Part shown: positions 10,119-50,964 of the stretch, one piece after another
Layout of the letters: each line of letters begins with the position of its first letter
Position numbering within the stretch: the stretch's first letter is position 1
Source of the DNA: a virus
Taxonomy: Duplodnaviria > Caudoviricetes
Length of the DNA stretch: 52,606 nucleotides
Direction: 5' to 3' (one strand)
IMG/VR virus record: IMGVR_UViG_3300037540_000099
Span: 1 to 52,606 of that record
Program-made: the position numbers and the translations under genes
Notes under the pieces: generated by a model
The model's input: only the letters and a program-made list of their open reading frames with translations
Told to the model about the DNA's origin: nothing
The model's database searches: none

Positions 10119-10790
10119 TCAGCCCTCCAAGGCGCGGCGAAGCATCGTCACGACTTCCGCGCGGGTCGCTGGGTCATCAGCTCGCGTTCCGTCCATGATG
10201 CCATTCTCGACTGCCCAGTCAATCTCCGCTTGCGCCCAGTGCGGCTGTTCGGGAGGTGCGTCCAATGCCGCTGCTACTCGTGCGCGAACGCTTGCCAAGT
10301 TGATTGCGCTGCCAGGGCATGTCTTCGAGGAGAACTCGGTGTGGAAACGGACGTTGGTCTCCGTCAGCGCGAACCGCTTACAGAGGATGGCCATCACCTT
10401 GACGGCAGTCGGCAGGCAAGCCTCTGGGTCTTCCTCGCCCACGTCGTAGTTGCCTATCATAGCAACGCCGATGCTGTACCCGTTATAACCTTGGCAATGG
10501 GCACCCGTCTTCTGTACGGGCCGTAAGAGCCACACACTTCCGTCCGGGCCAACACCGACGTGATAGCCGATGTCACTCCAGCCCTTCGCGTCAACGTGGT
10601 AGTCTTGAATGCCTTCCCACGTTGCAAGGTCGTCGTACCACTCAGCCCTCGGCTTCCAGGTATGGTGCAGGAAGACCTCATCCATCCTGCGGTTCGGCGG
10701 TGCCTCCATCACGAGGTCATGGAACGTCTCGACCGTCACAGGTTCCAGCCGCGACCTTCCCGGCGCTATGTCAGTCCACCAGTGGGCCAT
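10119..10790 (-). CDS. Endolysin: N-acetylmuramoyl-L-alanine amidase (Amidase_2) plus C-terminal SLH domain
   Basis: LHHT, GWSDIGYH, GAHC.G.N..SIG, H...SKTCPG; C-terminal HWAQAEIDWAVENGIMDG...ATRAE is SLH-like. Confidence 0.92.
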   Translation of the reverse strand: MAHWWTDIAPGRSRLEPVTVETFHDLVMEAPPNRRMDEVFLHHTWKPRAEWYDDLATWEGIQDYHVDAKGWSDIGYHVGVGPDGSVWLLRPVQKTGAHCQGYNGYSIGVAMIGNYDVGEEDPEACLPTAVKVMAILCKRFALTETNVRFHTEFSSKTCPGSAINLASVRARVAAALDAPPEQPHWAQAEIDWAVENGIMDGTRADDPATRAEVVTMLRRALEG

Positions 10791-17169: not shown

Positions 17170-20066
17170 CAGACGATCCGCTCCCAGCGGGTTCCGCGTT
17201 CGTCACTCTGCCAGTGTACCGTCTCATTCGCCCGAACGTCAAGGGCAGTCATCTGTAGGCCGCCGTCAGACATTGCCCGAATGCGAGGGTAGGCGAAGCC
17301 GCTCAGATCATCCACCCTCTCCTCGTCAGTCCACTCCAGGCGCGGGTTGGGGACCGAGCGAACGTAGATAGTCCGCTCCCTGGTGTACGTGATCCAAGCG
17401 ATGCCCGCTGCGTCGAGGACCGAATCCACGTCGTCACTTCCGAAGTCCACGTCGCACGCCCACGGTGAGCTCTTCCCCCGCTCGATTTCGATCCCCGAGG
17501 TGCTGCGCCAACCAGGTCCGTCGTTTACGATGCTGAACTCCGCGTCCCCGTTCGTGGCCGCCGTGACGTCGATGTAGTAGCCGCGCGGGTAGTTGTGGTG
17601 CGCCCATTGATCGAGGAACAGCGGGAGGGCTGTCTGCCAGCCGACAGGCATTGTTGTGGTCAACACGACGGAGACGCCCGTGGTATCGGTCGCCGTCACC
17701 GTCACGCTTCCGCCCCCGTCGCTGGTGCCGATGATCTTCAGCATCACAGGACCGACCGTGCGCCCCAAAGTACCCTCCGCGCCCGCGATGCTCTCCCCGT
17801 CAGCGAAACCGCCGAGAGTCCACTGACCGAGCGTTAGGTGAGTCGCCACCCAGCGGGAGAGCCCCAGGCCCAACCAGTTCGCGACGAGGTAGGCATCGGT
17901 CTCCTCATAGGCAACCGGCGCCGGCCAGCCGGAGACCTCCACATCGAAGGTCAGTCCCGAGGTCATCGTCTTCACGACGCGGTTCCGCCAGACCTGAAGG
18001 ACCGAGAGGGTCCGGGTGCGGAACGAACTGATCATCTCCGTGTGGTAGCCGTTGTCCGTGCCTTCGATGCAGTGACCGCGCGTGTAACCGCCGTGCGTAG
18101 GATCGACCCAGACGGGTCCTCCGCAAGTCGAGCAGACCCAGGACTCGAAGGTCAGCGCCCGATTGATCAGCTTGTCTTCGAGGCCGACTGATACGGTTCG
18201 GTGCTCAAGCGGTTGCAGCCACTCACCGGATTGGAGACCGAGGCGGAAGGCCTCCTTGGGGCCCTCGGTCGCGGTGATCAGCTCCCCGAAGTTCGACTCC
18301 ACGGCAGAGCCATGCGCCTTGCCGCCTACGTAGGCGTAGACCGTCCGGCCGAAGCTCCCCTCGAAGTTCGGATCACCCGTTACCCACGGCGCGTTATCAT
18401 CTGCTACGAGGCTAAGGGGTGCCTGAATCTCCTCGCCGCTCGCATCATGGACGGAGTAGAGCTTCAGCGCCACCGCGTCGTTCTCTCCCTGCGTCAATGA
18501 GCTGCTACCGACCCAGCGGGGGAGTGGATCAGTCCAGACTCCTACGCCATTCGGCGTCTCGCGGAAGTCGAACTGCTCCCCCGTCCCCTCGTCCTCCACG
18601 TAGGCTGCCCTCTCGGTGACCGGCAAGTGTTCGTGAGGCCCGTCCGCTCCCCAGGGGCGAAGGCCCTCAGCCCCGGTCGGCGGCGCGGCCCCGCTGTTAC
18701 ACGCGGCGAAGCTACCGGCAACACCCACATCCCACCAGAAGCCGCTGAGATCGAGGGCTGTCGCTGGCTGTACCATACAGGACCCCTGTGAGTCCAGGAT
18801 CGCGATGAAGCCGATAGAGGGTTCGTGGTTAGTCGTGGCCTCGAAGGAGCCGTCAGCACCCGTCGTCGCCAGCGCCACCCAGCCCGTGTTGCCGAGCTCC
18901 GTCTTCCAGCCGTAGATCGTAGCGCCTGCCAGCGGCTCCGAGCCGTAGTGATAGGCTATCCCCTGAATCTTGTAGGTAGGCGCGCTGTAGTCAGTCCAGG
19001 CGCCGGCAAAGGTCACCGTGTACTGCCCGCCGCTGACCGTCTCAATGGACTGCCGGGGGATACCCCCCTGCGTATCATCGTTCGGATGATAGAGCGCGAC
19101 GTGGTACTTCCCCGGGGGCAGGTTCGTGTTCTCCGTCGCGGTCCCGGCGCCGTCGAGAGTGCCCTGCTTGCGGAGTAGGCCGCCATACCACATGATGCTG
19201 TACTTCGCGTCGGCCGGCCCGTTGATTGTGATGGAGACTGCGGCGATGTCAAGCTCCGAATCAACGCCCTCTTCGATCTCCACGAACTCCTGCTTGTAGT
19301 ACATGCGGAGCGATGAGAGAGTGCGCTCAGGCGTCGGTGCCGAAGGCCAGCCGTCTTCGTCCTCTCCCCGGTAGCCCTGGGCACCGAAGCCGCGCGGGAC
19401 CATGATCGGCTCAGTGGTCCCGTTCGGATAGACGCTCTCCACCACTCCATCGGCGTTCGTGCGAAACATCCCCCGGGCAGCCCCGTATCCATCCCACGGG
19501 TAGACCGCCTCCCACCAACAGAGGTGTGAGTCCTGCTCGGTGTCATAGATCATCGCAAGGTCGACCCAGGTATTCGCCTTGAGGACCCCGCCCTCGCTGA
19601 GTGTCACGCTTCCCGGCACCCAGGCCATGCGGAAGATCACCGAGTCGATGTCAGCGAACTCCGTTGCGGGTTGCCAGGTGTTGAAACTGCCGCCGATGTC
19701 CCGGCCCCAACTTGGCGCCGGAAGATCATCGAACATGAGGGCATAGACGGCGTTCCCGTCACCGTCGAGGCGACCGAGAAGTGAGACCGTCGTGTAGGGG
19801 TCGTTCTCAAAGGGGAGAGGGTAATCCGTCTCGCCAATGGTTGCCTTCAGCACGCGGAAGAAGAACTCGCTGCCTCCGTAGATGATCGAACCGCGACCGT
19901 CAGCGTTGACCGTGTTGGTGATCCCAACGACCTCGCCAACCTCACCGTCGAAGAGGTCCTCATGGGCAAGGGCAGTCCGCTGAAGACCGGAGGGCCAGAC
20001 CACCGGCACAGCAGGCACCGGAAGCGTGTTGTACGCAGGCTCGTTGTACGCCCCGCGATTGTACAT
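17169..20066 (-). CDS. Large minor tail protein (~965 aa)
   Basis: T/G-rich beta composition, carboxypeptidase-regulatory-like segment (ATTGADGSF), C-terminal Asp-box (SDERGTRW); coupled start MYNRG. Confidence 0.7.
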   Translation of the reverse strand: MYNRGAYNEPAYNTLPVPAVPVVWPSGLQRTALAHEDLFDGEVGEVVGITNTVNADGRGSIIYGGSEFFFRVLKATIGETDYPLPFENDPYTTVSLLGRLDGDGNAVYALMFDDLPAPSWGRDIGGSFNTWQPATEFADIDSVIFRMAWVPGSVTLSEGGVLKANTWVDLAMIYDTEQDSHLCWWEAVYPWDGYGAARGMFRTNADGVVESVYPNGTTEPIMVPRGFGAQGYRGEDEDGWPSAPTPERTLSSLRMYYKQEFVEIEEGVDSELDIAAVSITINGPADAKYSIMWYGGLLRKQGTLDGAGTATENTNLPPGKYHVALYHPNDDTQGGIPRQSIETVSGGQYTVTFAGAWTDYSAPTYKIQGIAYHYGSEPLAGATIYGWKTELGNTGWVALATTGADGSFEATTNHEPSIGFIAILDSQGSCMVQPATALDLSGFWWDVGVAGSFAACNSGAAPPTGAEGLRPWGADGPHEHLPVTERAAYVEDEGTGEQFDFRETPNGVGVWTDPLPRWVGSSSLTQGENDAVALKLYSVHDASGEEIQAPLSLVADDNAPWVTGDPNFEGSFGRTVYAYVGGKAHGSAVESNFGELITATEGPKEAFRLGLQSGEWLQPLEHRTVSVGLEDKLINRALTFESWVCSTCGGPVWVDPTHGGYTRGHCIEGTDNGYHTEMISSFRTRTLSVLQVWRNRVVKTMTSGLTFDVEVSGWPAPVAYEETDAYLVANWLGLGLSRWVATHLTLGQWTLGGFADGESIAGAEGTLGRTVGPVMLKIIGTSDGGGSVTVTATDTTGVSVVLTTTMPVGWQTALPLFLDQWAHHNYPRGYYIDVTAATNGDAEFSIVNDGPGWRSTSGIEIERGKSSPWACDVDFGSDDVDSVLDAAGIAWITYTRERTIYVRSVPNPRLEWTDEERVDDLSGFAYPRIRAMSDGGLQMTALDVRANETVHWQSDERGTRWERIV

Positions 20067-20941
20067 CAGGTCTTCGAGAGCTCCTGGTCGCTGCCCCACC
20101 CGTCGTTCTGGTAGTGGAAGTCGATCTCCAGCAGGAAGGCATCGGCGGCGTAGTCATCCCCATCGCTCACGTCTCGATAGATGCGGCACATCAGGGTCGG
20201 GGAGACACTCGTAATCCCACTCATGTCGATAGCAGCCAGGGCCGCGTATTGGTGCTTGTGGGCCACTCCGTCTCCGGCCTGGGTCACGTCAAGTGTGCTG
20301 GTCGCTCCAAACGTGCCGTCGATCTCGGCGAGCGTATACTCCAGTTTCCAGGTCACGCTCCCCGTGTCGGTATCGGAGGGCGCCCAGTGGATATGAGGGC
20401 GGAGCTCGGTCTCGACTGCCCAGCCATGAGGAACCTGCACAGTGAAGTACATCTCCTCGTCTTGATTCTTGTCGAAGGCATAGGCCTTCACAGTCCCCTG
20501 AAAGGTCTCCAGGTCTGGGGCGCTCGCACCGATGACTGCGGATGTGGCGGGGAAGCGGATGTCCTCCCACGAGAGGCCGTCCCCTGTCGTGCGGGTGACA
20601 CCAGTGATCGGTGAGTTCCCGGCGTCAAGGCTGAACTTCTCGTCCATGTGCTCTGCCATCACCAGGGCGGCCACGCGCGAGGCCGCGGCGTGATCGGCGG
20701 CGACCGTCCCCGACTGCGCCCGAACAACCGTGAGCACATTCCCCGCCTTGTTGGTACACTCCATCACCTCCATCCCCGGATCGTCGCCCGGGTCGCCATA
20801 GTTGGCGTCGTTCCAGACGGTCAGCCAGAACGGGGTTGCGGGGAGGAGTGATCCGTCGCCAACCGTCAGCGAGGTCTCGGAGCTGGTGATTACGTAGGTG
20901 AGGCGCGTCTTGGCGTTGTTGAGGACTTGGTGAGTGGCCAT
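20066..20941 (-). CDS. Tail fibre-like structural protein
   Basis: N-terminal LT..ITSSETSLTV.DGS.LP...EVM.CT....NVLTVVRAQSGT.A..H motif common in phage tail proteins. Confidence 0.7.
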   Translation of the reverse strand: MATHQVLNNAKTRLTYVITSSETSLTVGDGSLLPATPFWLTVWNDANYGDPGDDPGMEVMECTNKAGNVLTVVRAQSGTVAADHAAASRVAALVMAEHMDEKFSLDAGNSPITGVTRTTGDGLSWEDIRFPATSAVIGASAPDLETFQGTVKAYAFDKNQDEEMYFTVQVPHGWAVETELRPHIHWAPSDTDTGSVTWKLEYTLAEIDGTFGATSTLDVTQAGDGVAHKHQYAALAAIDMSGITSVSPTLMCRIYRDVSDGDDYAADAFLLEIDFHYQNDGWGSDQELSKT

Positions 20942-20950: not shown

Positions 20951-21295
20951 CTACTGCGAGGGGTGAGACTGCGCAAGGGCTGAGGGGTGCGCGGGGATGC
21001 CGGCGAGGGAGCCGGGCGCTTCCGAAGCATCGATGATGGAGACCGAAGGGCGCCCGTCGATCACAGCCACTTCGATGCACTCACCGGAAGCCGTGAGGTA
21101 GCGGCCGGTAGGGATGTGCGTCTCGGTTGCTGCGACCGTCTGACGCTCTGCGCGGAGCTGTGCTCGCTTGGCTTCGGCAACTCGTTGGCCCGCCGTCCAC
21201 TCACCGAGCCAGACGCCGAGGCAGACCATCACGAGCAGGCCGAGCACGCAGAGGGCTGGCTTCAGGATGGAAGGGCGGCGGAGGGAGGTCATCAT
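20951..21295 (-). CDS. Single-TM hypothetical protein
   Basis: Hydrophobic ALCVLGLLVMVCLGVWL; ATGA coupling. Confidence 0.65.
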   Translation of the reverse strand: MMTSLRRPSILKPALCVLGLLVMVCLGVWLGEWTAGQRVAEAKRAQLRAERQTVAATETHIPTGRYLTASGECIEVAVIDGRPSVSIIDASEAPGSLAGIPAHPSALAQSHPSQ

Positions 21296-22209
21296 ATCGT
21301 CCCGTTTGGTAGCTGCCCGATGATACCTGCATCGAAGCCGCCCTTGAATAGACGGCTCGGGTGCTGCTTCATCAGACCGTCTACGTAGTCAACACCCGAC
21401 CATGCTTCGAGGCCGGACAGCCACTCCGTCAGCATCGGGTACGGTGGCTGGTCGAGCAACTTCTTCGGCAGGATGCGCTCTTCCCGGTCGTGATCGTAGA
21501 GGGGCTTCATCTTGGGCCAGAACTTGAATCCGAGGAGAGCCCCCGTCAATACATTGTGCTCAATCAGCTTCGCCCTGAGCGGTTGGCCACTTGCCCAGTA
21601 GCAGTCCAGGATGATCTGATAGTCGATCAGCATCAGGGCCAAGCGCCCGCCAACGGAGCGGACCATCGCGGCCGCCTCGTCTACGAAGGTGCAGATCCGA
21701 TGGCTGCTTTCGGCCCGCATCGCATCATCATTCTGGGAGATCGTCTGACAGTAACCCGTCTCAGCGTAGCGGTTGCCAACCAGGATCGCCCGGACCTGGG
21801 GCGCCACGTCGCGGAGAACCTCCAAGTTATGATCATAGGCGATGGTCGGCGCCGGCGGGAACGGGCCATCGTTGAATTGGGTGCCCTCGTACATCGGCGC
21901 GTAGAGCACATCTTGCGTGCAGGCAACCTTGTGTAGATCGGAACGGAAGAGCCAGTCGGTCTCCACACCGTTCGGCGCGGTCCCGTAGCCGGTCGTGCAA
22001 ACGAGGATGCGCCCGGGCTCATAGTTGATGGACTGCCACGTTGCCCTGCCCGAGCAGCAGATCAGGTAGAGCGGGAACGGGCACTCATAGGGTGTGCTGT
22101 ACTCCTGGGCATTGCGGACTATCCGCGTCGGCTTGTCCGTCTCGATCTCATGTCCTGCTGCTCCCAGCCCGGTTACGCTTGGCGCAGATATGAGCCCCAT
22201 GTTTCCCAA
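21292..22209 (-). CDS. Hypothetical protein (possible TIM-barrel-like fold)
   Basis: 305-aa ORF in the coupled operon; VRAILVGN resembles a glycosidase strand. Confidence 0.65.
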   Translation of the reverse strand: MGNMGLISAPSVTGLGAAGHEIETDKPTRIVRNAQEYSTPYECPFPLYLICCSGRATWQSINYEPGRILVCTTGYGTAPNGVETDWLFRSDLHKVACTQDVLYAPMYEGTQFNDGPFPPAPTIAYDHNLEVLRDVAPQVRAILVGNRYAETGYCQTISQNDDAMRAESSHRICTFVDEAAAMVRSVGGRLALMLIDYQIILDCYWASGQPLRAKLIEHNVLTGALLGFKFWPKMKPLYDHDREERILPKKLLDQPPYPMLTEWLSGLEAWSGVDYVDGLMKQHPSRLFKGGFDAGIIGQLPNGTI

Positions 22210-23006
22210 CTCCAGACGTGCGGCTGAGGATCGAGGTTCTGAACGTCTACAGGTTGCCCGATTGCGGACAGCGGGTCAAGGGGATTGGCGGCCGTAGCCA
22301 GCAAGTAGGTCCGCGCGTCTTCGACTGAGGCAGCCTGCATCGCATCCCACGGGACCCCGCCGACAGACTTGCTCATCCCCGCCCCGTAGTCATCGGTGAT
22401 CATCGGCAGGGAGAGCTGCAGGTGCTCGCGCCCGGCCGCCTCGAAGACGGCCTTCTCAAGGGCGATCATCTTTTGGATGCCCACCGAGCTGTCGGCTTCC
22501 GGCGGCCACTCCGGCGCATAGTCCGCGCCCTCGGCGAACTCCATCCCGCGAATCATCAGGCTCGGGTAGTAGTCAACCAGATCATCCATGATCAGGTTGC
22601 GGAACTCCACCCCCAGGCTTGCGAGGTGGTCTATGGTCTCTCTGATCCTGGCCCACACAGTCGGGCCGACCTGCTGTGCGTACTGGGTGTCAGGACGCGG
22701 GCGAACGCCAATCGGCGCCCTGTAGACCTTCGCCGCGCGAATGCCGAACCACGCCATGCAGCCGGCCAGGTCGATCACTCCCCCGTAGTGATACTCCGGG
22801 CGCTCCCAACTGCCGTCAAGCCTGATGTGGAACGGGATGCCCTCGCGCTCGCAGTGGAGCGCACCGAGCAGCAGCGTCCGCACATGGCCGACGTGAATCC
22901 GCGACCGAGGGTACTGCCAGAGGCGCAGGTTGACCGCCTGGTAAGGATCGTGCGGGGAGGGATCGCTCTGGATGGTGATGGCCACGCGGGCTCGTCGGTA
23001 AGTCAT
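22173..23006 (-). CDS. Minimal GluRS/GluQ-RS-like class I aaRS catalytic domain protein
   Basis: RLWQYPRSRIHVGH (HIGH), FHIRLD, MAWFGI, IMDD...MIRGMEF, FEAAG, LPMITDDYGAGMSKS (KMSKS), all collinear with GluRS. Confidence 0.75.
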   Translation of the reverse strand: MTYRRARVAITIQSDPSPHDPYQAVNLRLWQYPRSRIHVGHVRTLLLGALHCEREGIPFHIRLDGSWERPEYHYGGVIDLAGCMAWFGIRAAKVYRAPIGVRPRPDTQYAQQVGPTVWARIRETIDHLASLGVEFRNLIMDDLVDYYPSLMIRGMEFAEGADYAPEWPPEADSSVGIQKMIALEKAVFEAAGREHLQLSLPMITDDYGAGMSKSVGGVPWDAMQAASVEDARTYLLATAANPLDPLSAIGQPVDVQNLDPQPHVWSWETWGSYLRQA

Positions 23007-23200
23007 TTCGGATGTTGCCTTTCCGTCTCCTCGAGGATCTCAAACCAGAGCTGATCAATGGCTTCCGGTGGGGCCTGCAGTATCAGGGCCGCCGTCATGT
23101 GGCGGCCTCGCTTCTGCAGGGTGCTCACAAGGTGGCTGCGCTTCCTCTCGGGCGTCCAGTTCACGATAGCGTCCGCAACACCGGCAGTCTTCGGATTCAT
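23003..23200 (-). CDS. Small hypothetical protein
   Basis: ATGA-coupled at both ends. Confidence 0.65.
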   Translation of the reverse strand: MNPKTAGVADAIVNWTPERKRSHLVSTLQKRGRHMTAALILQAPPEAIDQLWFEILEETERQHPK

Positions 23201-24990
23201 CCCTGCTCCCTTTGCAGCGCCTCGATCTCCCGCACGACCTCGGCCCGCAGGTCGTCGAGGTTGCGCTCGCAGAGCTCGTTCATGTGTTTACCCTCGAGCC
23301 ACGCGCCGCCGTCAAGCGCGTTCAGCGTGGCAACGTACCGGGCGTCGTCTACGCCTTCCCTGAAACCTTCCCAGCCGATGGTATCGAACATCGCCTCCGG
23401 CCCTCTGCAACTCAGGAACCCGTTGACGATGCCGGTGTCTACCGGGTCGCCGACCTTCAGCGGGGGATCGAAGCCGCAGTAAGCCCACGTCATCGTCCCA
23501 TCGGTTCCGCGCACGTAGAGGCCGAAGCCCCTGTTCCTCCGGTGACTCTCCGGGTCGGGCCAGTTGCCCGGGGGGTCCATGTAGGAGAGGACCTCGTTCC
23601 CCGCCGCGTGAGAGGCCGTGATGCCCTTCTCGAAGCGCGGGTCTGCCTGGTACTTGCCGCCGTCTGTGACCCAGAGCCTCGGGTCGCACCTCGACCGACT
23701 GTATGGGTTGCGCAAGAACTCGTCGGAGTTCGACTTCGCGTGGTCGAGGCAGGTCCCGTAGCCGTAGCCGGGGTCCATGATTACGGCGGTGCGGAGCGAG
23801 TCAGCGACAGCCGGTGCCCAGTCGTGATTGCATGCCACCCAGCACCCGCCACCGTTCGGGGTTCGGCAGGAGTGGAATGACTCGCGCTCGCCCATGAGGA
23901 TGTCAATGGGTGCCTCGTCCATCCCCATCCACAGGACGGACGTGTATCCTCGGTCCATCGCCCAGGCGTTGATCTTCAGCGCCCGGGCCTTGTTGAGTGC
24001 CTGTTCGTCGTGGGTCAGCGGGCGGTTGTAGACGATGGTCATGCCGCCGTCCATCGTATAGAGGCGGCCCTTCGGCATTCCCGCCTGCTCGCGCAAGTCG
24101 AGGATGCGCCCGAGCAGCTCGAAGTCCATGATGCCAGTCTCAATGCCCGGCGTGTCCTTTGGCAGCACCCTCGCGCCGTCGTAGGTGTTCGGGTTGGTGC
24201 AGCCGTGCGCCACCATGTTCCGGAAGTCACTGAGCATCTGCGCTTCGGTCAGCATCTCCGACGCCTTCGGGGCATCGGGGGGCAGCGCCCCTTCGAGTCG
24301 CTTCGGGTAGTAGATGGAGTATGTGAACGGCGCGTCGATCAGGTCGATGTCCGGCACCCGAACGGTGAGCGTGATGACCGTCTTCGGCTTGCCCTCCACG
24401 GTGACGGTGACTCGCCCTTTGTAGGTGCCCGCCGTCGCGTCCTCGGGGACGTGGACGGTCAGCCAATACTGTTCGCGCCCATCGCTATCCACGGGCAGCA
24501 TCGTCGGCGAGTCGATGGCCTCCTTCACCACCTTCATAAATGCCCAGTGTTCACCCTCTGACGGACGGGCCCGAAGGCCTGCAGGCGTCGGGAGGTCTGG
24601 GCTCCCGTAGGTAAGCTCGAAGATGCCGGGATCGTGTACCAGCGTCCACGGGAAGATGCCCATGCTCGCCCGGGTCACGTCGTGCGCGGTCATCTGAGCG
24701 AGTCGGATGTCAACGCAGGAGGAAGGCAACCGCCCCTCTTCCCCGCGCAGGCCAGAGCACGTCACGCGGATGCCCGTCAACGGTTCCTCTGAGTCCACGA
24801 CGAAGGTCGCCGGTTCGTATTCACCCCGGCAAGCGGTCACGGCCAATGACCGGCCCTCTCTGTACTCAACAGGGAGCGGGCCATCCGGCATGACCGATGC
24901 CAGGGTGAACGGATGGTCGGTCGTGTAGACCTCGTAGGCGCCGGCCGAAGAGCCGACACCTACGAGGGTGAGCAGTGCGAGGGTTCTCAT
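23197..24990 (-). CDS. Secreted glycoside-hydrolase-like protein (GH123/DUF4091-like)
   Basis: Signal peptide MRTLALLTLVGVGSSAGA; RGEYEPATF; YWLTVHVPEDATAGTYKG; DEA acidic pair; WEGFREGVDDARY C-terminal motif; AAGGAG RBS. Confidence 0.75.
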   Translation of the reverse strand: MRTLALLTLVGVGSSAGAYEVYTTDHPFTLASVMPDGPLPVEYREGRSLAVTACRGEYEPATFVVDSEEPLTGIRVTCSGLRGEEGRLPSSCVDIRLAQMTAHDVTRASMGIFPWTLVHDPGIFELTYGSPDLPTPAGLRARPSEGEHWAFMKVVKEAIDSPTMLPVDSDGREQYWLTVHVPEDATAGTYKGRVTVTVEGKPKTVITLTVRVPDIDLIDAPFTYSIYYPKRLEGALPPDAPKASEMLTEAQMLSDFRNMVAHGCTNPNTYDGARVLPKDTPGIETGIMDFELLGRILDLREQAGMPKGRLYTMDGGMTIVYNRPLTHDEQALNKARALKINAWAMDRGYTSVLWMGMDEAPIDILMGERESFHSCRTPNGGGCWVACNHDWAPAVADSLRTAVIMDPGYGYGTCLDHAKSNSDEFLRNPYSRSRCDPRLWVTDGGKYQADPRFEKGITASHAAGNEVLSYMDPPGNWPDPESHRRNRGFGLYVRGTDGTMTWAYCGFDPPLKVGDPVDTGIVNGFLSCRGPEAMFDTIGWEGFREGVDDARYVATLNALDGGAWLEGKHMNELCERNLDDLRAEVVREIEALQREQG

Positions 24991-25175
24991 ATTGCGCTCC
25001 TTGTGGGTGCGTTTCGTCGCGCGATAGCAGCAAGGCGAACGATGGCGCCAGCTATGATGACGGCCTCTGCGGCCTTGAACGTGACGCACCCGCCTGCAGC
25101 GTCTCGTATCTCAACCTTATCGAGTCTTTGCACGACCGTCCCGGCGGTTGTGCCGTCGTCAGATATGACCTCCAT
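24987..25175 (-). CDS. Small hypothetical protein
   Basis: GGAGGAG RBS; stop overlaps the next ATG. Confidence 0.55.
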   Translation of the reverse strand: MEVISDDGTTAGTVVQRLDKVEIRDAAGGCVTFKAAEAVIIAGAIVRLAAIARRNAPTRSAI

Positions 25176-25212
25176 CGCTACGCTCCTCCGTCAGATGCCC
25201 CCGCTCGTGCGG

Positions 25213-25932
25213 CTACCAGGGGAAGTCGCCGGGCTGGTGCAGGCACAGGTTGCGGGCGTGCCATCGGTAGTGACTCGCGCCGGTTGAATCCCAGTCCGTA
25301 GGCCACTTCAGTCGGCCTGCGTGCCCGTCGAGGAAGACGGCGTTGGAGCCCATGCTGTGCCGGTCGGGGCTGAACCTGCGATACGGGTAGTACAGGTAAG
25401 GGGTCGGGTTGCCGTCGCCGCGATTGCACCCCTGGTTGTCGGCGATCATCACGATGTCACTCATTCCCGTCAGGGTGCCATTGGGCAGCATACGAGTCCA
25501 CACGTTCTCGGGGAAGATGCCGGTGATGCAGATGTTGGGCGCGTAGCTCAAGAACCGGGCCTTCGCGTTGTACGGCTGTCGCCGCGTCAGCCACGAACAG
25601 TTTTTCCAGTCGGGGCAAACGAGCACGGACTCGTTCGCGATGTACGGGGTGAGGATGCCACCCCAGGGCACCAGGCTCTCAAGGTTCGGCCCGTAGTAGA
25701 CGAACCACACATTCTCCCCGCCGCCGTTGCTCGACGGAGGCAGGGCACCATCCTCGTCCGAAGCATACGTCAGGGCCGCCATCCCAAGTTGGCGGATGTT
25801 CATGAGGCAGTTCGTCGTCCGCGCCTTCTTGCGGACCTGGGCGAACACTGGGAAAAGGATCGCAGCCAGGATGCAGATGATCGCGATCACGATCAACAGC
25901 TCTATGAGGGTGAAGCCTTGTCTGCGTCTCAT
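25213..25932 (-). CDS. Prepilin-type N-terminal cleavage/methylation protein, DUF1559/H-X9-DG family
   Basis: MRRRQG|FTLIELLIVIAIICILAAILFPVFAQ.R.KAR...C..N..QLG; C-terminal H-SMGSNAVFL-DG; AAGGAG RBS. Confidence 0.93.
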   Translation of the reverse strand: MRRRQGFTLIELLIVIAIICILAAILFPVFAQVRKKARTTNCLMNIRQLGMAALTYASDEDGALPPSSNGGGENVWFVYYGPNLESLVPWGGILTPYIANESVLVCPDWKNCSWLTRRQPYNAKARFLSYAPNICITGIFPENVWTRMLPNGTLTGMSDIVMIADNQGCNRGDGNPTPYLYYPYRRFSPDRHSMGSNAVFLDGHAGRLKWPTDWDSTGASHYRWHARNLCLHQPGDFPW

Positions 25933-25967
25933 TGCGGAAGGTCTCCTTTGTTGTCTGTGGTTACCAG

Positions 25968-26177
25968 CTATCGAGCCAAGCCCGGCGCCGGTCCTCCCGT
26001 CTCTGGCGTTGCCCCGTCAGCGGTGCCAGGAATGGGTGCAGGCGAACCTGGCGTGGCTTCCACGCCCTCACTCGGCTTGTCGCGCAAAGCGGCCCATACG
26101 AAACAGCCGACGAGCACGACTGCGGCAACGACTATCGCGATCACTATCCTCGGGTCGACTGCCTTCTTCTCGTTCAC
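25968..26177 (-). CDS. Small single-TM protein with Pro/Gly tail
   Basis: VDPRIVIAIVVAAVVLVGCFVW; GTGA-coupled; AAGGAGG RBS. Confidence 0.7.
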   Translation of the reverse strand: MNEKKAVDPRIVIAIVVAAVVLVGCFVWAALRDKPSEGVEATPGSPAPIPGTADGATPETGGPAPGLAR

Positions 26178-26764
26178 GGTGTCCCTCCTTCGGGTACATG
26201 CCCCCGCGCTCGGGGGTCGTAGCTTGACAGCGTGCTCCCGTCTGCCATGCACTCGGGTCTCCACTTGTTCTCTCCACGGATGAAGCCGAGCTTCTCGCGA
26301 CTGATTGCCACCTCCCTTGCAACTGCCGTGCTGTCGTCTGTATGGGCTGCCTTGATCTCCGCATCGGCCTTCCGGTCACCGATCTCGGCCATCACCCAGA
26401 CAGCCTTCGCGCGAAGGTCCGCGTCAACGTTGCTGCCGGCCGCGATTTCCCCCATGCCCATGATCACACGGTTCGTGTGGGGCTCGCCCTTCTTGCGCTT
26501 GTGCCTCGTCTTCGCGAACCAGCGCCGCCCGCGAATCACGAGTGCCGATGCGGTTGCCTCTCGGGGAGCCAGGTCATGCTTGAAGGCGTGAATGAGGGCC
26601 TCCGCGCTCTCCCGAGAGTCAAGCGCACAGAGGCTCTCTACGGCGTCCACCTTCCCCTGCGGGGCAGGACGGTCAAGCGCATCCCGAAGCTCAGGCACAG
26701 GCGACACAGAGCAGCCTGAGAGCACGAGGAAGGCGGCGAGGGGGAGGAGTCTCATGGGGTTCAC
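26174..26764 (-). CDS. HEAT-repeat-like lipoprotein
   Basis: Lipobox LSG|C; REATASAL and LRAKAVWVMAEIGD HEAT-like helices. Confidence 0.7.
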   Translation of the reverse strand: MNPMRLLPLAAFLVLSGCSVSPVPELRDALDRPAPQGKVDAVESLCALDSRESAEALIHAFKHDLAPREATASALVIRGRRWFAKTRHKRKKGEPHTNRVIMGMGEIAAGSNVDADLRAKAVWVMAEIGDRKADAEIKAAHTDDSTAVAREVAISREKLGFIRGENKWRPECMADGSTLSSYDPRARGHVPEGGTP

Positions 26765-27627
26765 CAGTGGGCATCCCTATAGACGCCAGGCAGGCGGGTG
26801 CATTGTGAACGCCAGCCTTCGTATGTGTGCTGATAGGTGCGGATTGGATTGGGGAGCAACGCTTGCCCCGTGACGCGCTCTTCACCTCGGTGCGTGATGC
26901 AGTAGCAGGCCCCGCCGTCATTCCGCTGCCACACCTGCCCGACCTCGATGGGCTCGGGTTCGGGGGCGGCCAGAATGCACTTCTTCTGCACAGCGGACCA
27001 GTACTTGCACTTGGGCTCGGCTTCCTCCGCGAACTCCTGGCGCTGCTCGGGCTCGATGCCCTCGTGAGGGTCGGGCTTCTTGGTGCGCCGCTTCCCTATC
27101 ACCTGCGGCTCGGTGTCCTTGCGCGGGTCATCCTTCGCCTCGGCGGGTGGGGCTGTCTCGTCGCTTGACAATTCTTCGAGCTTGGCACGGAGTTCTTCTT
27201 CGGTGAGACCAGCCGCTTTCAGCTTCCAGAAGAGCGCCATCACACGGGCCATGCCATCCTCTTCTGCCTCGGTTGATCCACGCGGCTCCTCGGCGGGCGC
27301 CGCTGTTACGCCATGCCGCATATTGAAGGCAACAAGTTCGGGATGGATGGCTTCGCACTTGATGCAGCGTTGTCCGTGGTAATGCCAAACCTCATACTGA
27401 TGCTCGCACTTCTCGCGGCCTGCTTCCTCGGCAGGCGGGTCTTCGCGCTCAAGGTCCTCAGCCACCACGACCATTGCGTTCTCGCCCAGCGCCGTCGGCA
27501 TCACTGTACCGACAAGCCGTAGCGCCTTCGCTATCCTCAGGTCGACCTCTCGCTCGGTCAGGCCGGGCGAAGGTGCCTTCGCTGCAATGCCCTCTCTCTC
27601 ACGGATGGGTGGTAGGTCAGTCATCAC
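26761..27627 (-). CDS. Mosaic hypothetical phage protein
   Basis: Coupled at both ends; small Cys domains with Pro/Glu linkers; IEVGQVWQ motif. Confidence 0.65.
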   Translation of the reverse strand: MMTDLPPIREREGIAAKAPSPGLTEREVDLRIAKALRLVGTVMPTALGENAMVVVAEDLEREDPPAEEAGREKCEHQYEVWHYHGQRCIKCEAIHPELVAFNMRHGVTAAPAEEPRGSTEAEEDGMARVMALFWKLKAAGLTEEELRAKLEELSSDETAPPAEAKDDPRKDTEPQVIGKRRTKKPDPHEGIEPEQRQEFAEEAEPKCKYWSAVQKKCILAAPEPEPIEVGQVWQRNDGGACYCITHRGEERVTGQALLPNPIRTYQHTYEGWRSQCTRLPGVYRDAHW

Positions 27628-28457
27628 GCCTCCAGTATTCTGAGCAGGCTCTCACCGTGTTCGAGTTCTTGGGCTAGTGGCCTCGCCGTGTCTCGGAGCC
27701 GCTTCAGCCTCTCTGCCTTCAGCGCCCGGAAGCCTTCTACATTGCGGGCGACCCTCATCGTTTCCCATCCCCGAGCCGACAGGTCTGGGCGCCGTCGCGG
27801 GAAGCCGATCTTGGCGAGTATGTCCGGCCAGCGAACGTCCTTGTCGATCTCGTCCGCAAGATCATCGAAGAGGATCGACTGACCTCCGGCTTCCTCTACA
27901 TCGCGAGCATCCTGGCAGGTCGCTGCCAGCCAGATCAGGAAGAGGGTTTCCAGGTCATCCTTCGGATCGAACAGGTGGTAGATGGCCTCCGCCGCTGTCC
28001 CCTTCGAGCCCTCCCGCTGTGAGTCGAATGTCTGCACTACCCAGAACCAGAAGTCCCGCTTTGCGAAGCTCGCTGCCACTCCATCGAAACCACGCCAGAG
28101 GTGGATCACTCTCGGCTCGGCGCCGCCGGCACGGAGGCCTTCCAGGGCGAGGGGGATCTTGTAGCAGAGGTACACTTCCTTGAATCCGTTGTGCCCCCAC
28201 TTGTGCTCCCCGAGATCCTCGAAGAGCTTCGGCATGTTGTCCTGCATGTTGGCGCTCGGGGTCGGCTGCATGTAGTCTCCACGGTAGGCGCCCTTCCCCT
28301 CGAAGAAGGTGCTGTGCCGGTTGCCCAGCCACCTCTCGATGCGATGCCCCCGCAGACCGTAAACAGGCTCGTTGCAGATGTCGATCCCCTCTATCGTGTT
28401 GAGGGACTCCAGAAACCAGGTGCTGCCCGAGCGGGGGAAGGAGAAGATGGAGATCAT
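27624..28457 (-). CDS. PAPS-dependent sulfotransferase
   Basis: FPRSGSTW (5'-PSB loop), NEP, GFKE, HLWR....AAS (3'-PB), FDDL. Real start is ATG at 28457 (ATGA coupling), not 28961. Confidence 0.85.
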   Translation of the reverse strand: MISIFSFPRSGSTWFLESLNTIEGIDICNEPVYGLRGHRIERWLGNRHSTFFEGKGAYRGDYMQPTPSANMQDNMPKLFEDLGEHKWGHNGFKEVYLCYKIPLALEGLRAGGAEPRVIHLWRGFDGVAASFAKRDFWFWVVQTFDSQREGSKGTAAEAIYHLFDPKDDLETLFLIWLAATCQDARDVEEAGGQSILFDDLADEIDKDVRWPDILAKIGFPRRRPDLSARGWETMRVARNVEGFRALKAERLKRLRDTARPLAQELEHGESLLRILEA

Positions 28458-28669
28458 CGGAGCCGCGCCCTTCGTCGTTCCTCCCACAGACCGAGAAGGT
28501 ACGGGATGCTCTTGCGCAGACGCCCCTCCTGCTTCGGAGCCGTTGAGGGAGTCCGTCGTGCGTGCGCGAGGATAGCCTTCGCGGTTCGCCGCAGGTCCGC
28601 TCGCGACGGAGGCCCGTACTGCTTGAGCACTCGCCGGATAGCCTCGGGATCGACCTTGAGTCGGATCAC
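28454..28669 (-). CDS. Small basic hypothetical protein
   Basis: Coupled at both ends. Confidence 0.6.
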   Translation of the reverse strand: MIRLKVDPEAIRRVLKQYGPPSRADLRRTAKAILAHARRTPSTAPKQEGRLRKSIPYLLGLWEERRRARLR

Positions 28670-30261
28670 TCCTCTGCCTCCCCGCTGACTTCAGCCTGCG
28701 CATCCGCCTCCCGATCTCGTCTCGCCTCTTCCGCCAACCTCGCGGCCATTTCCGCCGCGGTCTCACGCTCGCCGATCTTCTCGACGAGGAGTTCGTGGAA
28801 CTGGCCGGCCATCCGCTCGGCTGCGAACATCTCTGCGACCTGCAGGCTGAACTCAGGAGGGACCCGACCGTCGTGCAGGTGAGCCACAACGGTGTCGGCC
28901 ATCTCGTCCAAGTCGCCCGGCTCGCACAGGTCAACATACGGAGGGAGCCCGAGCAGATCATAGATCTCAGGGATGCCCCCGCCGATCATGGCCACAACCG
29001 GACACCTGCACATCAGAGCCTCGGGGATGATCAGCCCGAACGGTTCGTCGGTCCTTGTGTGCATCAGGCAATCCATCGCTCCGTACATCGCCGGCATCTG
29101 ATCGGGGCTGACGTGCGCGTGGATGATGTCGGCCTCGGCGAGCTCCGCTCTCTGCATGTACTTCGTCTTCTGATCCGTGAATTCGTCAACATCATCGGGA
29201 GGGATCACCGAGGCCCAGGTGAGGCCACGCTTTTCGGCCCGCTCGCGCGAGGCCACATAGACTTCCGGCTCCCACATCGGCCCGACCATCAGGCCACGGA
29301 CTCGCGACTCGCGATGCGCCTTCATGGATGCCAAGCAGGAGACCCACTCAACCGGCTTCTTCTCCTGGCTGAAACGCCCCGAGAAACCAACGATGAGATC
29401 ATCAGGCCGAATGCCCAGCGACTCACGCACCTTCGTCCGCGACTCCTCATCACACGGCCGGAAGACCTCGGAGTCGATCCCGTTGTAGATCAGGTAGACA
29501 GGCACTTGAGGCATTCGGCCGGACGTATGGACGCGGTTGGCGGAGTGATCGGAGACGGCTATGATGAAGTCGCTCGGATGTTCCTGCGCATCCCAGTTCC
29601 AGCCGCAATGATTGTATTCGCCGATCAGCGGGACACGCAGGTCGTTGGCTGCGAAGAGAGGGGCATGTGCGAGCTGACCAATCACGATGTCCGGCGCCAC
29701 ATCCCGCAGGACCTTCGTGGCCTCCGCCCGGGCCCGCTGGAACGGGCCAGGCATCGGCGGGAAGTCCCACTCAAACATCAGATAGTGCTCTATGAGTTCG
29801 ACGCCTTCAGGGAGCGAGTCATCCATGTCCTTCACTTGGCCGGTCACCACGACAGGCGTGAAGAGGTCCCGGTCAAGATGCTTGATGTGGGTGATGGTGA
29901 CGACTTCGAGGCCGCCCCGGTGCCAGCAGGGCGACACGAACGCGATCTTGTAGGGCGGGGAGTCGGGCTTCGGGCCGACCTGTCTCGTGAGGGGAAAGCC
30001 GATGGGCTCGTGATGAGGGATGATCTTCTGCGCGGCCATTAGCGGTTCGTCCTCCTGCGGTACTGGTGCGCCGCTTGGGCGTGGCGTCGGACCCCGACTG
30101 ACGAGCGCCTCCAAGTCCTCCCGCCGGTAGCGGGTCTGCTTCCCCACCCGAACGGCTGGCAGCGTGCCCTGCTTGGCCCATCGCCGAACCGTGCGCGGGG
30201 TCACGTCGAGAAACCGTGCTGTCTCTGCGCATGTCATCAGGGGAGTCTTGCTACCCAACAT
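28666..30261 (-). CDS. Excisionase-type HTH fused to GT4 (GT-B) glycosyltransferase
   Basis: N-terminal LMTCAETARFLDVTPRTVRRWAKQGTLPAVRVGKQTRYRREDL. Then GGLE, IAVS, IYNGID, GRFSQEK and EPFGLIIPEA (EX7E). Confidence 0.9.
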   Translation of the reverse strand: MLGSKTPLMTCAETARFLDVTPRTVRRWAKQGTLPAVRVGKQTRYRREDLEALVSRGPTPRPSGAPVPQEDEPLMAAQKIIPHHEPIGFPLTRQVGPKPDSPPYKIAFVSPCWHRGGLEVVTITHIKHLDRDLFTPVVVTGQVKDMDDSLPEGVELIEHYLMFEWDFPPMPGPFQRARAEATKVLRDVAPDIVIGQLAHAPLFAANDLRVPLIGEYNHCGWNWDAQEHPSDFIIAVSDHSANRVHTSGRMPQVPVYLIYNGIDSEVFRPCDEESRTKVRESLGIRPDDLIVGFSGRFSQEKKPVEWVSCLASMKAHRESRVRGLMVGPMWEPEVYVASRERAEKRGLTWASVIPPDDVDEFTDQKTKYMQRAELAEADIIHAHVSPDQMPAMYGAMDCLMHTRTDEPFGLIIPEALMCRCPVVAMIGGGIPEIYDLLGLPPYVDLCEPGDLDEMADTVVAHLHDGRVPPEFSLQVAEMFAAERMAGQFHELLVEKIGERETAAEMAARLAEEARRDREADAQAEVSGEAEE

Positions 30262-30268
30262 GGGGGAG

Positions 30269-30298
30269 AATGTACCACAAACGGACAGAAGCGGTCAA
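30269..30298 (-). promoter_or_regulatory. Promoter TTGACC-N18-TACATT (TGn-extended) for the accessory operon, probably leaderless
   Basis: -35 at 30298-30293, -10 at 30274-30269; 7 nt between the -10 and the ATG, with no RBS. Confidence 0.65.
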
Positions 30299-30305: not shown

Positions 30306-31895
30306 CTATTCCTGCAGGGCCGCATCGCGATCATAACCTGCGGCTTGGTCCTCAAACCAGCCCTCGCCATTCTCAAGGTTGATGTTGAGGGTACCAGGGA
30401 TATTGGTCGCTGCTTGAGCTTGCCGAGCTTCGTGGGCCTCACGAATAGCCTCGGCGTGACGACGAGAACCCGGGGTGACGCCTGGAGGTACTGTCGTGAC
30501 TGGGGCAAAGGTCTCTACGCCTAGCACTCCAGGGAATACGGCTTCAGGTGGCTGGGCCATCACTGGAGCATCGAGAGGGGCGATTGCTTCAGTAGGCCCA
30601 ACAGGGCGAGCGCCTCGACGTCTTATGCTACGGCGTTGTGCTTGCAGCCTGCCGAACACTTCTCCGATCTGCTCGCCCAGTTGCTTTTCTGTCTCTGCCG
30701 CTATTGCAATCTCCCGCGTTTCCTGACGTCTCTCAATCTGATGGACCGCAAAGAGACCAAGTATACCTGCCCCACCGGGCACTGCCCTACCGGCTGCCCC
30801 CCGAGCGCCCGCAAGAGCACCACCGCCACCGGGCACTCTACCGCCGCCGCGAGCGCCGGGACCAATCGGGATTATGGCGCCGCCTCCACCTCCCACACCG
30901 GCTACACCAGCCGCGCCGGCAGTTGCTCCCGCCCTGGCCATTCGACTGGCGGCGACTTCCGTGGCTGCCGCCGCCTGAGTAGCAGCCACGCCCGTCCGCG
31001 TGAACCAGCCGATCACCATTCTGAGTCCATTGATCAGGAACGGAAGCGCCATAAGGATCGGCCCGCCGACGCCGAATGCGATCCCGATAGCGAAGGAGGC
31101 CTTGATGATCTTCTCCGCCAGCTTGGGATGTTCGTCTGCCCACTCGCGGAAGGAGGCGATGGCCTCGGCGAAGTTCTCCGCCGCCTCAGCGATACCCGGG
31201 CCAAGCGTGGTGACGAGGGTCTGCCCGAGCCCCTGCGCTGCCAACTTGACTTCGTTGAGGGCATCGTTGTAACGCTCTGCCGCTTGGGCCGCGTCCTTAT
31301 CCCAGACGATGCCCAGCTCTTCGGCCCGCTCGGTGAGCTCCTTGACGCCCTCGGAGCCCTGGTTCAGCATCGTAAGGAGCGCGACTCCACGCCCGCCGAA
31401 GATCTCCTGCGCCGTCGCTGCCTTGAGCGTGCCCTCCTCCATCTTCGAGAAGCCGTCGGCGAGGTCATTGATCAGCTCTTCGGCGCTCTTGATCGTGCCG
31501 TCTGCCTTCTTCACGGAGACGCCCACGCGCTCGTAGGCTTGCTCATACTGCTCCATGCCATCAGCCGCTTCAGCCGCCGACCGTTGCATTCCCCGAAGGC
31601 TCATCTGCAGGGCGCCGAACTCAAGGCCGGACTGCTCGGCTGCGAACCGGAGCTTGCTCAGTTCCTCTACTGCGACACCCGTAATCTGAGCCGCCTTCGC
31701 TATTTCGTCCCCGTACCGCGCGGCGCTGGTGAGCGAGGCCATCATGGTTCCGGTGATGGCTGCACCCACAGCCGTCATCACCCGGCCGACCCCGGCGGCC
31801 TTGTTGGCGAGCGAGTCCAAGCGGCTCTCCGTCTGACTGAAGCCGCGACCGGACTGATCGACGTAACCAAGAAGGACCTTCAGGTCGAGTGGCAT
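30306..31895 (-). CDS. Tail tape measure protein
   Basis: Follows the tail chaperones; Ala/Gly-rich helical TMP motifs (AQITGVAVEELSKLRFAAEQSG, AQEIFG) and hydrophobic segments. Confidence 0.88.
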   Translation of the reverse strand: MPLDLKVLLGYVDQSGRGFSQTESRLDSLANKAAGVGRVMTAVGAAITGTMMASLTSAARYGDEIAKAAQITGVAVEELSKLRFAAEQSGLEFGALQMSLRGMQRSAAEAADGMEQYEQAYERVGVSVKKADGTIKSAEELINDLADGFSKMEEGTLKAATAQEIFGGRGVALLTMLNQGSEGVKELTERAEELGIVWDKDAAQAAERYNDALNEVKLAAQGLGQTLVTTLGPGIAEAAENFAEAIASFREWADEHPKLAEKIIKASFAIGIAFGVGGPILMALPFLINGLRMVIGWFTRTGVAATQAAAATEVAASRMARAGATAGAAGVAGVGGGGGAIIPIGPGARGGGRVPGGGGALAGARGAAGRAVPGGAGILGLFAVHQIERRQETREIAIAAETEKQLGEQIGEVFGRLQAQRRSIRRRGARPVGPTEAIAPLDAPVMAQPPEAVFPGVLGVETFAPVTTVPPGVTPGSRRHAEAIREAHEARQAQAATNIPGTLNINLENGEGWFEDQAAGYDRDAALQE

Positions 31896-41427: not shown

Positions 41428-41457
41428 AGACTACACGCTCGGGGGAAAGGGCGTCAA
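41428..41457 (-). promoter_or_regulatory. Promoter-like TTGACG-N18-TAGTCT
   Basis: Overlaps the MTase stop; near-duplicate of 41253-41282. Confidence 0.6.
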
Positions 41458-50756: not shown

Positions 50757-50935
50757 GCCGGCCTCCAGACGCAGAGAAGCCCCGGCACTGCATCGCACCG
50801 GGGCTCTCATACGTGGAAAGACCCACGTCGGGAAGGACCGCCGAAGCGGGACCAATGATCGTGGGTCGTTTCGCCTGAGTTGGTCGGTTGTAGGAGCTGC
50901 TCATCATTGGTCTGCCCCTTCCCGAGGGCACCTCT

Positions 50936-50964
50936 AGTCTACCCTACATCCCATCCGAGGTCAA
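50936..50964 (-). promoter_or_regulatory. Promoter TTGACC-N17-TAGACT for the replication operon
   Basis: -35 at 50964-50959, -10 at 50941-50936. Confidence 0.7.

Follow-up and report, generated by a model that had tools for sequence, protein, structure and literature searches.

A recurrent pilin, glycosidase and GluRS-like gene cassette within a composite island in the tail module of an uncultivated phage

Introduction

Among described systems, the closest precedent for the replacement or trimming of a phage receptor by the genes considered here is P-FimU, a prophage minor pilin of Pseudomonas F10-like phages. According to PMC12952977, the P-FimU gene lies in the tail cluster, the pilin becomes part of the host pilus and prevents tip-binding phages from adsorbing, and virulent phages also encode PilA-like proteins. 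The subject of this work is a stretch of phage DNA, IMG/VR virus record IMGVR_UViG_3300037540_000099, which was analysed over its entire length of 52,606 bases (63% GC, with direct terminal repeats) and is called the window below. An island of 13 genes in its tail module encodes, among other products, a type IV prepilin, an exported protein related to glycoside hydrolase (GH) family 123 and a paralogue of glutamyl-tRNA synthetase (GluRS).

Synthetase paralogues that use acceptors other than the 3' end of tRNA are also on record, and both GluQRS and MshC are of this kind (PMC9437257). An earlier reading of the window, made from its letters without database searches (hereafter the sequence-only reading), had treated the 13 genes as one system. 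It offered two outcomes: remodelling of the host envelope or superinfection exclusion, in which a sulfated, possibly aminoacylated glycan is written and the native receptor erased, or decoration of the virion with glycans. That such a glycan is written remains an inference. The analysis presented here points to a composite accessory island around a mobile, phage-specific cassette, the exported products of which would act on the envelope of the infected cell and not on the virion. The probability of this explanation is put at roughly 0.4.

A core of four genes recurs in viral contigs

The core of the island consists, in this order, of a prepilin gene, a gene for an exported GH123-like protein, a GluRS-like gene and a gene for a cytoplasmic partner. 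It was found in eight viral contigs and three metagenome fragments, by searches started from the GH, pilin and GluRS-like sides. In an 80 kb viral contig (G001), the pilin, GH123, GluRS-like and partner (u305) genes stand in the same order as in the window, at 31-36% identity. Five genes are common to the window and G001 by BLASTP; four of these are the core, and the other match is weak. The order prepilin, signal-peptide GH-like protein, GluRS-like protein is also present in the viral contigs G002, G003, G004, G005, G006 and G007, and in the metagenome fragments L005 and L007 plus L003; fragment L006 holds the C-terminus of a GH followed by a GluRS-like gene. The fourth gene is u305-like in the window, G001, G002 and L003, and in G003, G006 and G007 the gene in this place comes from another family of cytoplasmic proteins, which shows a weak PslG-like match. 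Pilin and Sec-signal GH are strictly adjacent at every locus showing both ends, and each of the four phage records tested has exactly one prepilin gene, always beside the GH gene.

The bacterial relatives of the GH provide a point of comparison. At 78 bacterial loci with a GH homologue, neither a GluRS-like nor a u305 gene was found nearby (0/78), and a prepilin motif lies within ~6 kb of the GH at six. A pattern scan of species-representative genomes returned no relative of the GluRS-like protein. Because it recurs in viral contigs and is absent from the 78 bacterial GH loci and from the scanned genomes, the core is best taken to be specific to phages and horizontally mobile. A small number of metagenome-assembled genomes from Armatimonadota and candidate phyla (L072, L078, L081 and L082) have one or two prepilin genes at a distance of 1-3 kb upstream of a GH homologue, and such loci may be the bacterial source of the pilin-GH pair.

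The sequence-only reading had proposed that a glycosyltransferase of family 4 (GT4), a sulfotransferase, the GluRS-like protein and the DUF1559 prepilin would occur together as a signature. This combination did not recur. Among the four cassette records tested, only the window has GT4, and an alignment search of IMG/VR viral contigs found no relative of the sulfotransferase-like protein. G001 has instead a double GT2, two weak GT2-like genes and a UDP-glucose dehydrogenase fragment, and its GT2 matches the PHROG family 'GtrB-like O-antigen conversion'; neither glycosyltransferase family was found in G002 and G003, both of which are incomplete. Related phages carry only subsets of the 13-gene unit, an outcome that the sequence-only reading had named as a refutation of its proposal; this does not apply to the core. 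The 13 genes thus form a composite island, assembled around a core that is mobile, and not one conserved system or fixed pathway.

Phage-borne prepilins as such seem to be widespread. IMG/VR holds 208 viral stretches that encode prepilin relatives, and among the best 80 of these 208, seven loci carry a GluRS-like gene in the flank. About 15 near-identical loci (L107-L121) have a 211-residue prepilin match and no GH/GluRS-like cassette.

Two of the related contigs carry further elements. In G001, a TnpB/IS605-family gene with a Cas12f1-like TNB domain (E 5e-24) lies at 50557-51834 (6283-7560 of L002), between the double-GT2 gene and the pilin gene. The large terminase of G002 (782 aa; L093 2517-4865) includes a LAGLIDADG_3 domain, which suggests an intein or a homing endonuclease insertion.

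The prepilin and the exported glycosidase

The prepilin call is carried by the N-terminal methylation profiles PF07963 (39.4 bits, cut-off 21.2) and TIGR02532 (35.2, cut-off 16.3), with GFTLIE at residues 6-11. The DUF1559 profile PF07596 is matched at 25.4 bits against a cut-off of 23.3, over profile positions 2-60 only; TIGR04294 stays under its cut-off (17 vs 19 bits), and the H-x9-DG motif is present. Matches to GspG/H/I/J are below threshold and are confined to the N-terminal helix.

The neighbouring glycosidase belongs to a family of 2045 representatives. Its N-terminal domain matches PF22680 (36.2 vs 27 bits), as do all 17 family members scanned. The GH123 catalytic domain profile PF13320 gave no match in the window protein and matches one of the 17 members, the G001 copy. 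A pair of adjacent Asp and Glu residues is invariant in two alignments (17/17 and 16/16 rows), and we take this pair to be the GH123 catalytic residues. The window protein aligns over its full length with the PF13320-carrying G001 protein (hhalign, 97% probability), and its D-E pair aligns with that of G001, which is itself aligned with the D-E pair of PDB entry 8k2j. When G001 was left out, the PDB matches of the family profile were all GH123-type beta-N-acetylgalactosaminidases (best E 3.9e-12). All six homologues checked have a signal peptide, and no homologue was found in GenBank phages (50,697 records). The claim of a secreted GH123-like glycosidase is thus borne out by PF22680, the D-E pair and the Sec signal, but not by PF13320. 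A role of this protein as the endolysin was rejected, since a distinct Amidase_2 endolysin gene lies at 10119-10790, separate from the island.

The coupling of a pilin to an exported enzyme could be read as an aid to egress or dispersal. A phage pseudopilin would let the type II secretion system of the host export the GH123-like protein as a soluble depolymerase, rather than a device that masks the receptor, which would digest capsule or matrix late in infection and free the progeny. Substrates of type II secretion are Sec-exported folded enzymes, and the strict adjacency of the two genes, the location of the cassette in late structural operons and the Gsp matches of the pilin all fit this scheme. 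However, these matches do not reach beyond the N-terminal helix, and the single-pass protein TM114, tried as protein M of the secretion system, was rejected at 18.4 bits against the PF04612 (T2SSM) cut-off of 27.8. The GluRS-like gene is also left unexplained. An egress function is considered unlikely.

Another explanation starts from the bacterial distribution of both families. The GH family is common in polysaccharide-degrading bacteria of the Planctomycetes-Verrucomicrobia-Chlamydiae (PVC) group, in Armatimonadota and in Poribacteria, with several paralogues per genome, and in one planctomycete no family of paralogues is larger than that of the DUF1559 proteins, which number 68 (PMC10632474). 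As an auxiliary metabolic module, the cassette would feed phage replication: pilin fibre and glycosidase would boost the capture and breakdown of polysaccharide by the infected cell, and the cytoplasmic enzymes would process the products. Such a module would not explain the fixed order of four genes or their placement inside structural operons, and in bacteria the GH has a prepilin nearby at few loci and a GluRS-like gene at none, as noted above. A metabolic role is rather unlikely.

The GluRS-like protein and its partner

The GluRS-like family is very small, with 10 clusters among 5.8 billion. Residues H38, G40, H41, S212, K213 and S214 are invariant in all 10 sequences, and the family profile finds GluRS in the PDB at E 4.3e-10. 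With the AlphaFold2 (AF2) model (predicted local distance difference test, pLDDT, 81) as query, Foldseek returned GluRS chains with E from 2e-7 and one cysteinyl-tRNA synthetase (8qhp, rank 33) among the matches listed to rank 40; GluQRS 4a91 was matched at E 6e-4. Neither PF00749 nor NCBIfam matched the window copy, and PF00749 matches the G003 copy (39.2 vs 23.4 bits). The C-terminal anticodon-binding domain is absent from the 277 residues, the alignments covering GluRS positions ~4-270 with a target-normalised template-modelling (TM) score of 0.3-0.35, and the insertion between the Rossmann halves is smaller. In a library of viral structures, the protein resembles only full-length synthetases of giant viruses and of a few phages. 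A scan of viral contigs with the single GluRS-like or tape-measure protein gave no matches.

The family has two subtypes, the window type and a type 2 that is nearer to canonical GluRS in its N-terminal part (TRFRPTP...HLGH; ESKS/CSKS); one type-2 member passes PF00749. Tandem duplicated genes are found in two cassettes, L007/L003 (L007 2416-3758) and G004 (L129 9458-11395). The G002 copy (L093) has a degenerate HIGH motif, LLSH.

The protein most likely activates an amino acid and uses a non-standard acceptor: it would activate glutamate or a similar amino acid with ATP and then transfer it to an acceptor other than the standard tRNA 3' end. The IRGxE motif is presumably the 'VIRGxD/E' segment of GluRS that contacts the glutamate side chain. 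Since this motif is kept, glutamate is a reasonable guess for the substrate.

The partner u305 belongs to no known family, and hhalign found no link between it and the GluRS-like family or A7, the alternative fourth-gene family. Its models are of low confidence (AF2 pLDDT 47): the VIA matches, mostly TIM-barrel glycosidases, have Z <=6, which is below the noise bar, and the Atlas value of 0.80 equals chance level. The fold is possibly a TIM barrel. Prediction of a complex between the GluRS-like protein and u305 gave a score of 0.01.

It is conceivable that two unrelated functions share one insertion hot-spot. The pilin and glycosidase would act on the envelope, and the GluRS-like protein and its partner would modify tRNA, in the manner of GluQRS acting on the queuosine of tRNA-Asp, or another nucleic acid or a small molecule. 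GluQRS consists of a GluRS catalytic domain without the anticodon-binding domain and activates Glu without tRNA (PMC9437257), and its equivalog profile TIGR03838 matches all five type-2 copies at E 1e-5 to 1e-9, in line with the Foldseek match to 4a91. Yet these matches score 20-30 bits against a cut-off of 276.7. Moreover, no gene of the tRNA-guanine transglycosylase (TGT)/DpdA type (PF01702) was found in any of four records (4/4), and no tRNA genes were found in the window. The linkage of the GluRS-like gene to the pilin-GH pair persists across ~30% identity and two subtypes, which argues for a joint function. Separate functions are considered unlikely.

Structure of the island and its other genes

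The island comprises 13 minus-strand open reading frames (ORFs) at 20951-30261 without internal stops, with a GC content at third codon positions (GC3) of 0.60-0.85 (Table 1). Nine of the 12 junctions are 4-nt ATGA/GTGA overlaps, and the remaining three consist of an overlap of 28 nt and two gaps (35 and 37 nt). The description of 13 co-oriented, tightly packed genes inside the tail module was therefore accurate, and PHROG matches on both flanks confirm the location between the tape measure and the distal tail genes. The assignments of the fused GT4, the DUF1559/H-X9-DG prepilin, the GluRS-like protein and the small membrane protein also held up, through profiles, motifs and fold.

Table 1. 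Features of the island and its flanks in the window
Feature	Coordinates	Strand	Length (aa)	Characteristics
Type IV prepilin, DUF1559/H-X9-DG kind	25213..25932	(-)	239	G6-F7...E11 cleavage motif; H192-x9-DG
Sec-signal GH123-related glycosidase	23197..24990	(-)	597	D358-E359 invariant, window 23914-23919
GluRS-like class I synthetase, catalytic domain only	22173..23006	(-)	277	HVGH 38-41; IRGME 152-156; GMSKS 210-214
Conserved partner u305, cytoplasmic	21292..22200	(-)	302	4 clusters + G001 copy
HTH_17 (excisionase/MerR-type) fused to GT4 glycosyltransferase	28666..30261	(-)	531	Pfam
Small basic ORF	28454..28669	(-)	71	4-nt overlaps both sides; weak HTH_Tnp_Tc5 match, E 0.034
Sulfotransferase-like protein	27624..28457	(-)	277	PRSGST at 8-13; R122-x7-S130
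Acidic protein with Cys pairs	26761..27627	(-)	288	No Pfam or NCBIfam family found
Lipoprotein with weak HEAT repeats	26174..26764	(-)	196	LSGC lipobox 15-18; Pfam
Single-pass membrane protein	25968..26177	(-)	69	GTG start overlapping preceding stop; Kyte-Doolittle 19-residue maximum 3.05
Small ORF	24987..25175	(-)	62	Stop overlaps GH start; GC3 0.60, coding status uncertain
Small ORF	23003..23200	(-)	65	4-nt overlaps both sides
Single-pass membrane protein TM114	20951..21295	(-)	114	Hydrophobic helix
Sigma-70-like promoter site	30269..30298	(-)		TTGACC-18-TACATT, TG-extended; consensus match only
Flank: tape-measure protein	30306-31895	(-)	529	phrog_8462 E 1e-41; second scan 6.9e-44
Flank: tail-fibre-like protein	20066-20941	(-)	291	PHROG tail-fibre N-termini, E 1e-5 to 5e-8

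The island had also been credited with its own promoter. A sigma-70-like site is indeed present at 30298-30269, where the sequence-only reading had ended the island; it sits in the 44 nt that separate the stop codon of the tape-measure gene from the start of GT4 and is the sole minus-strand site in the region. Yet the number of such sites in the region (two) is not enriched over shuffled sequences (1.7 +/- 1.3). No terminator-like site was found between the island and the tail genes.

In the tape-measure protein, the PHROG match is confined to the first ~340 residues, and the C-terminal third is rich in Gly and Ala; the GC3 of the gene is 0.68, below that of neighbouring genes. The idea that the island splits a tape-measure gene was rejected, as no tape-measure-like fragment is found downstream of it. 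The tail-fibre-like protein is followed by tail proteins of 976, 100 and 762 aa, the first of which has a homologue in G003.

The GT4 protein matches HTH_17 at 55.3 bits, Glycos_transf_1 (PF00534) at 51.4 (cut-off 26.4; 52.2 on rescanning) and Glyco_transf_4 at 49.3 (cut-off 28.5). Residues 406-414, EPFGLIIPE, form an E-x7-E motif, which, when it lies in the C-terminal half, we take to be a mark of GT4. A search of the GenBank phages gave only one weak match to this protein.

The 277-aa sulfotransferase-like product has two relatives among 5.8 billion protein clusters. It had been called a sulfotransferase using 3'-phosphoadenosine 5'-phosphosulfate (PAPS), for which we assume the motifs P-[KR]-x-G-[ST]-[ST], binding the 5'-phosphosulfate, and R-x7-S, binding the 3'-phosphate. 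R122 and S130 are kept in all three homologue rows, and PRSGST in both rows that can show it, the third (P0017) being without its N-terminus. The ESM Atlas gave a feature score of 0.97 and TM scores of 0.58-0.73 to sulfotransferase clusters for a model with pLDDT 0.72; these are leads without E-values. No profile matched in Pfam (E up to 10), NCBIfam (0.1) or PF13469 (E up to 1), so that motifs and fold leads speak for the call while profiles do not. As for the lipoprotein, the lipobox is present and HEAT_PBS lies above its cut-off (21.8 vs 20.9 bits), but HEAT_2 lies just below (27.3 vs 27.7), which leaves its description as HEAT-like only partly upheld. This protein recurs once, in the G007 cassette (L182:1980-2474; BLASTP E 4e-15).

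By motif, the enzymes of the island would not be catalytically dead, with D-E, HxGH/MSKS, E-x7-E and PRSGST intact. Four of the cytoplasmic candidates (GT4, the sulfotransferase-like protein, the GluRS-like protein and u305) are without export signals. Together with the location of the island among structural genes, this would suit a pathway in which GT4, the sulfotransferase and the GluRS-like protein modify capsid or tail proteins. In mycobacteriophages, glycosyltransferase genes beside structural genes have been linked to capsid glycosylation, according to PMC11256854. However, the conserved pilin and GH are exported and cannot meet virions in the cytoplasm, and GT4 and the sulfotransferase are the part that is not conserved. 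Decoration of the virion is clearly improbable.

Genome context and assembly

Almost all genes of the window are on the minus strand. Its phage hallmark genes are those for the large terminase, portal, protease, HK97-type capsid, head-tail adaptor, tail completion and tape-measure proteins. Other genes encode a DnaB-type helicase, a lambda-O-like replication protein, a PD-(D/E)XK nuclease, RNase H and a DNA methyltransferase of 472 aa, the gene for which lies at 41454-42872, between the portal and large terminase genes.

Because PVC bacteria typically carry DUF1559 and GH123-like genes, the window might be an assembly chimera, or bacterial DNA joined to a phage contig. CheckV estimates a completeness of 68% despite the direct terminal repeats reported by IMG/VR. 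Against this, the sole public run that contains the region, a marine sediment metagenome (X1), yields Logan contigs that span both island borders with zero mismatches at a depth of 12.8-13.4. These contigs represent a second assembler and, as X1 may be the source sample, not a second sample. There is no step in GC content at the borders, island genes and flanking tail genes overlap in GC3, and the same cassette is present inside seven other viral contigs. Since the output of an independent assembler runs across both borders at flat depth, a chimeric join is very unlikely; neither border shows a sign of one, and an artefactual origin of the locus can hardly be true. The only break in the Logan contigs is a two-allele bubble at 28320-28443 with six single-nucleotide polymorphisms, the minor variant having a depth of 3.7 vs 13.3. 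It covers the place where the 71-aa ORF ends and the sulfotransferase-like gene begins, beside the PRSGST loop.

In seven of the eight viral contigs, the cassette is located among structural or packaging genes or next to them. In G003-G006 it begins within ~2 kb after the capsid gene, and in G006 the tape-measure gene lies downstream. It follows a tail protein gene in G001 and the terminase gene, at a distance of a few kb, in G002, and it is cut by the contig end in G007. In G003, the homologue of the 976-aa tail protein stands directly after an 845-aa ORF, which only its size and position make a tape-measure candidate and which has no match to phrog_8462. This fits the idea that the island separates genes which usually stand side by side. 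Its cassette thus moves about within structural modules and is probably transcribed with the late genes.

A possible role in the envelope of the infected cell

If the cassette acts on the envelope, as is favoured here, the host prepilin peptidase would process the phage pilin, which would then enter pilus or pseudopilus fibres of the host and may help the neighbouring glycosidase to reach the surface. The glycosidase would trim sugars of the N-acetylhexosamine (HexNAc) type from the fibre or from a surface glycan. The cytoplasmic enzymes, that is the GluRS-like protein with its partner and, in this phage, also GT4 and the sulfotransferase-like protein, would alter the displayed material. As a net result, the adsorption receptor would be replaced or destroyed, so that rival phages are excluded and progeny do not become stuck to infected or lysed cells. 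Effects of this kind have been demonstrated by experiment for phage P-FimU. The envelope is favoured over the virion because five of the 13 products carry export or membrane signals (a lipobox, two single-pass helices, a prepilin signal and a Sec signal). Of the two outcomes offered earlier, envelope remodelling is thereby strengthened and virion decoration weakened.

Several points weigh against this role. The receptor model assigns no necessary part to the GluRS-like enzyme and its partner. In the window copy of this enzyme, the first K of KMSKS, present in 9/10 sequences, is replaced by G. GT4 and the sulfotransferase-like protein are accessories of this phage and do not recur alongside the core. 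None of the four cassette phage records tested, the window included, yielded a tyrosine integrase, and lysogenic expression of the cassette is doubtful for this reason. Classic superinfection exclusion is typically early or prophage-expressed, for which placement in a late structural operon is unusual.

A more elaborate scenario would make the cassette a self-contained surface-editing kit of phages that infect PVC-type bacteria. The GluRS paralogue would aminoacylate, and probably glutamylate, a sugar, a glycan precursor or the pilin, and a pseudopilin would deliver a matched GH123-like eraser to the surface. This is a speculative and quite unlikely proposal. If true, it would mean a new use of the aminoacyl-tRNA synthetase fold in glycan or pilus modification, together with a 'bring-your-own pilin' adaptor for secretion.

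What appeared to be a 13-gene system is in fact a mobile core with lineage-specific glycan enzymes. The coupling of pilin and glycosidase offers a route to learn the role of DUF1559/H-X9-DG fibres and their possible use as receptors by phages. The GluRS-like family is very rare and was not found in the scanned species-representative genomes; since it is always tied to the cassette, it may be a candidate synthetase with a new function outside translation.

Comparison with known systems

Seroconversion morons of the GtrABC type and the virion glycosylation operons of mycobacteriophages resemble the island in that glycosyltransferases lie beside structural genes. They differ in that no flippase or partner of the GtrA/GtrC type was seen here and in that the genes conserved in the island do not encode a glycosyltransferase. 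The GH123 beta-N-acetylgalactosaminidases (PDB 5l7v, 5fqe and 8k2f-8k2n) share with the window glycosidase the N-terminal domain, the PDB profile matches and the D-E pair. However, the catalytic domain of the window protein is missed by PF13320, and it represents a distant subfamily with no characterised member among the matches.

GluQRS/YadB is similar to the window synthetase in having the GluRS catalytic domain without the anticodon-binding domain, and the window protein keeps HxGH, MSKS and IRGxE. It differs from GluQRS in being shorter (277 aa) and in having no NCBIfam hit, and its family is found only in phage cassettes. MshC offers an analogue in the form of a class I synthetase paralogue that ligates an amino acid to an amino-sugar (PMC9437257). 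In the literature that could be searched, no paper linking DUF1559, GH123 or GluQRS-like genes with phages was found, nor was a description of the cassette.

P-FimU and the window pilin are alike in that a phage pilin gene lies in a structural cluster, here in the interval between tape-measure and tail-fibre genes and, in G003-G006, after the capsid gene. The differences are that the window pilin is of the DUF1559/H-X9-DG kind, that it is always coupled to an exported GH123-like protein and a GluRS-like protein and that no integrase was found. The cassette would extend the replacement of host pilus components by phages to uncultivated marine-sediment phages. It is best called a cassette that includes an undescribed family of synthetase paralogues, within the broader group of envelope-modifying accessory modules of phages.

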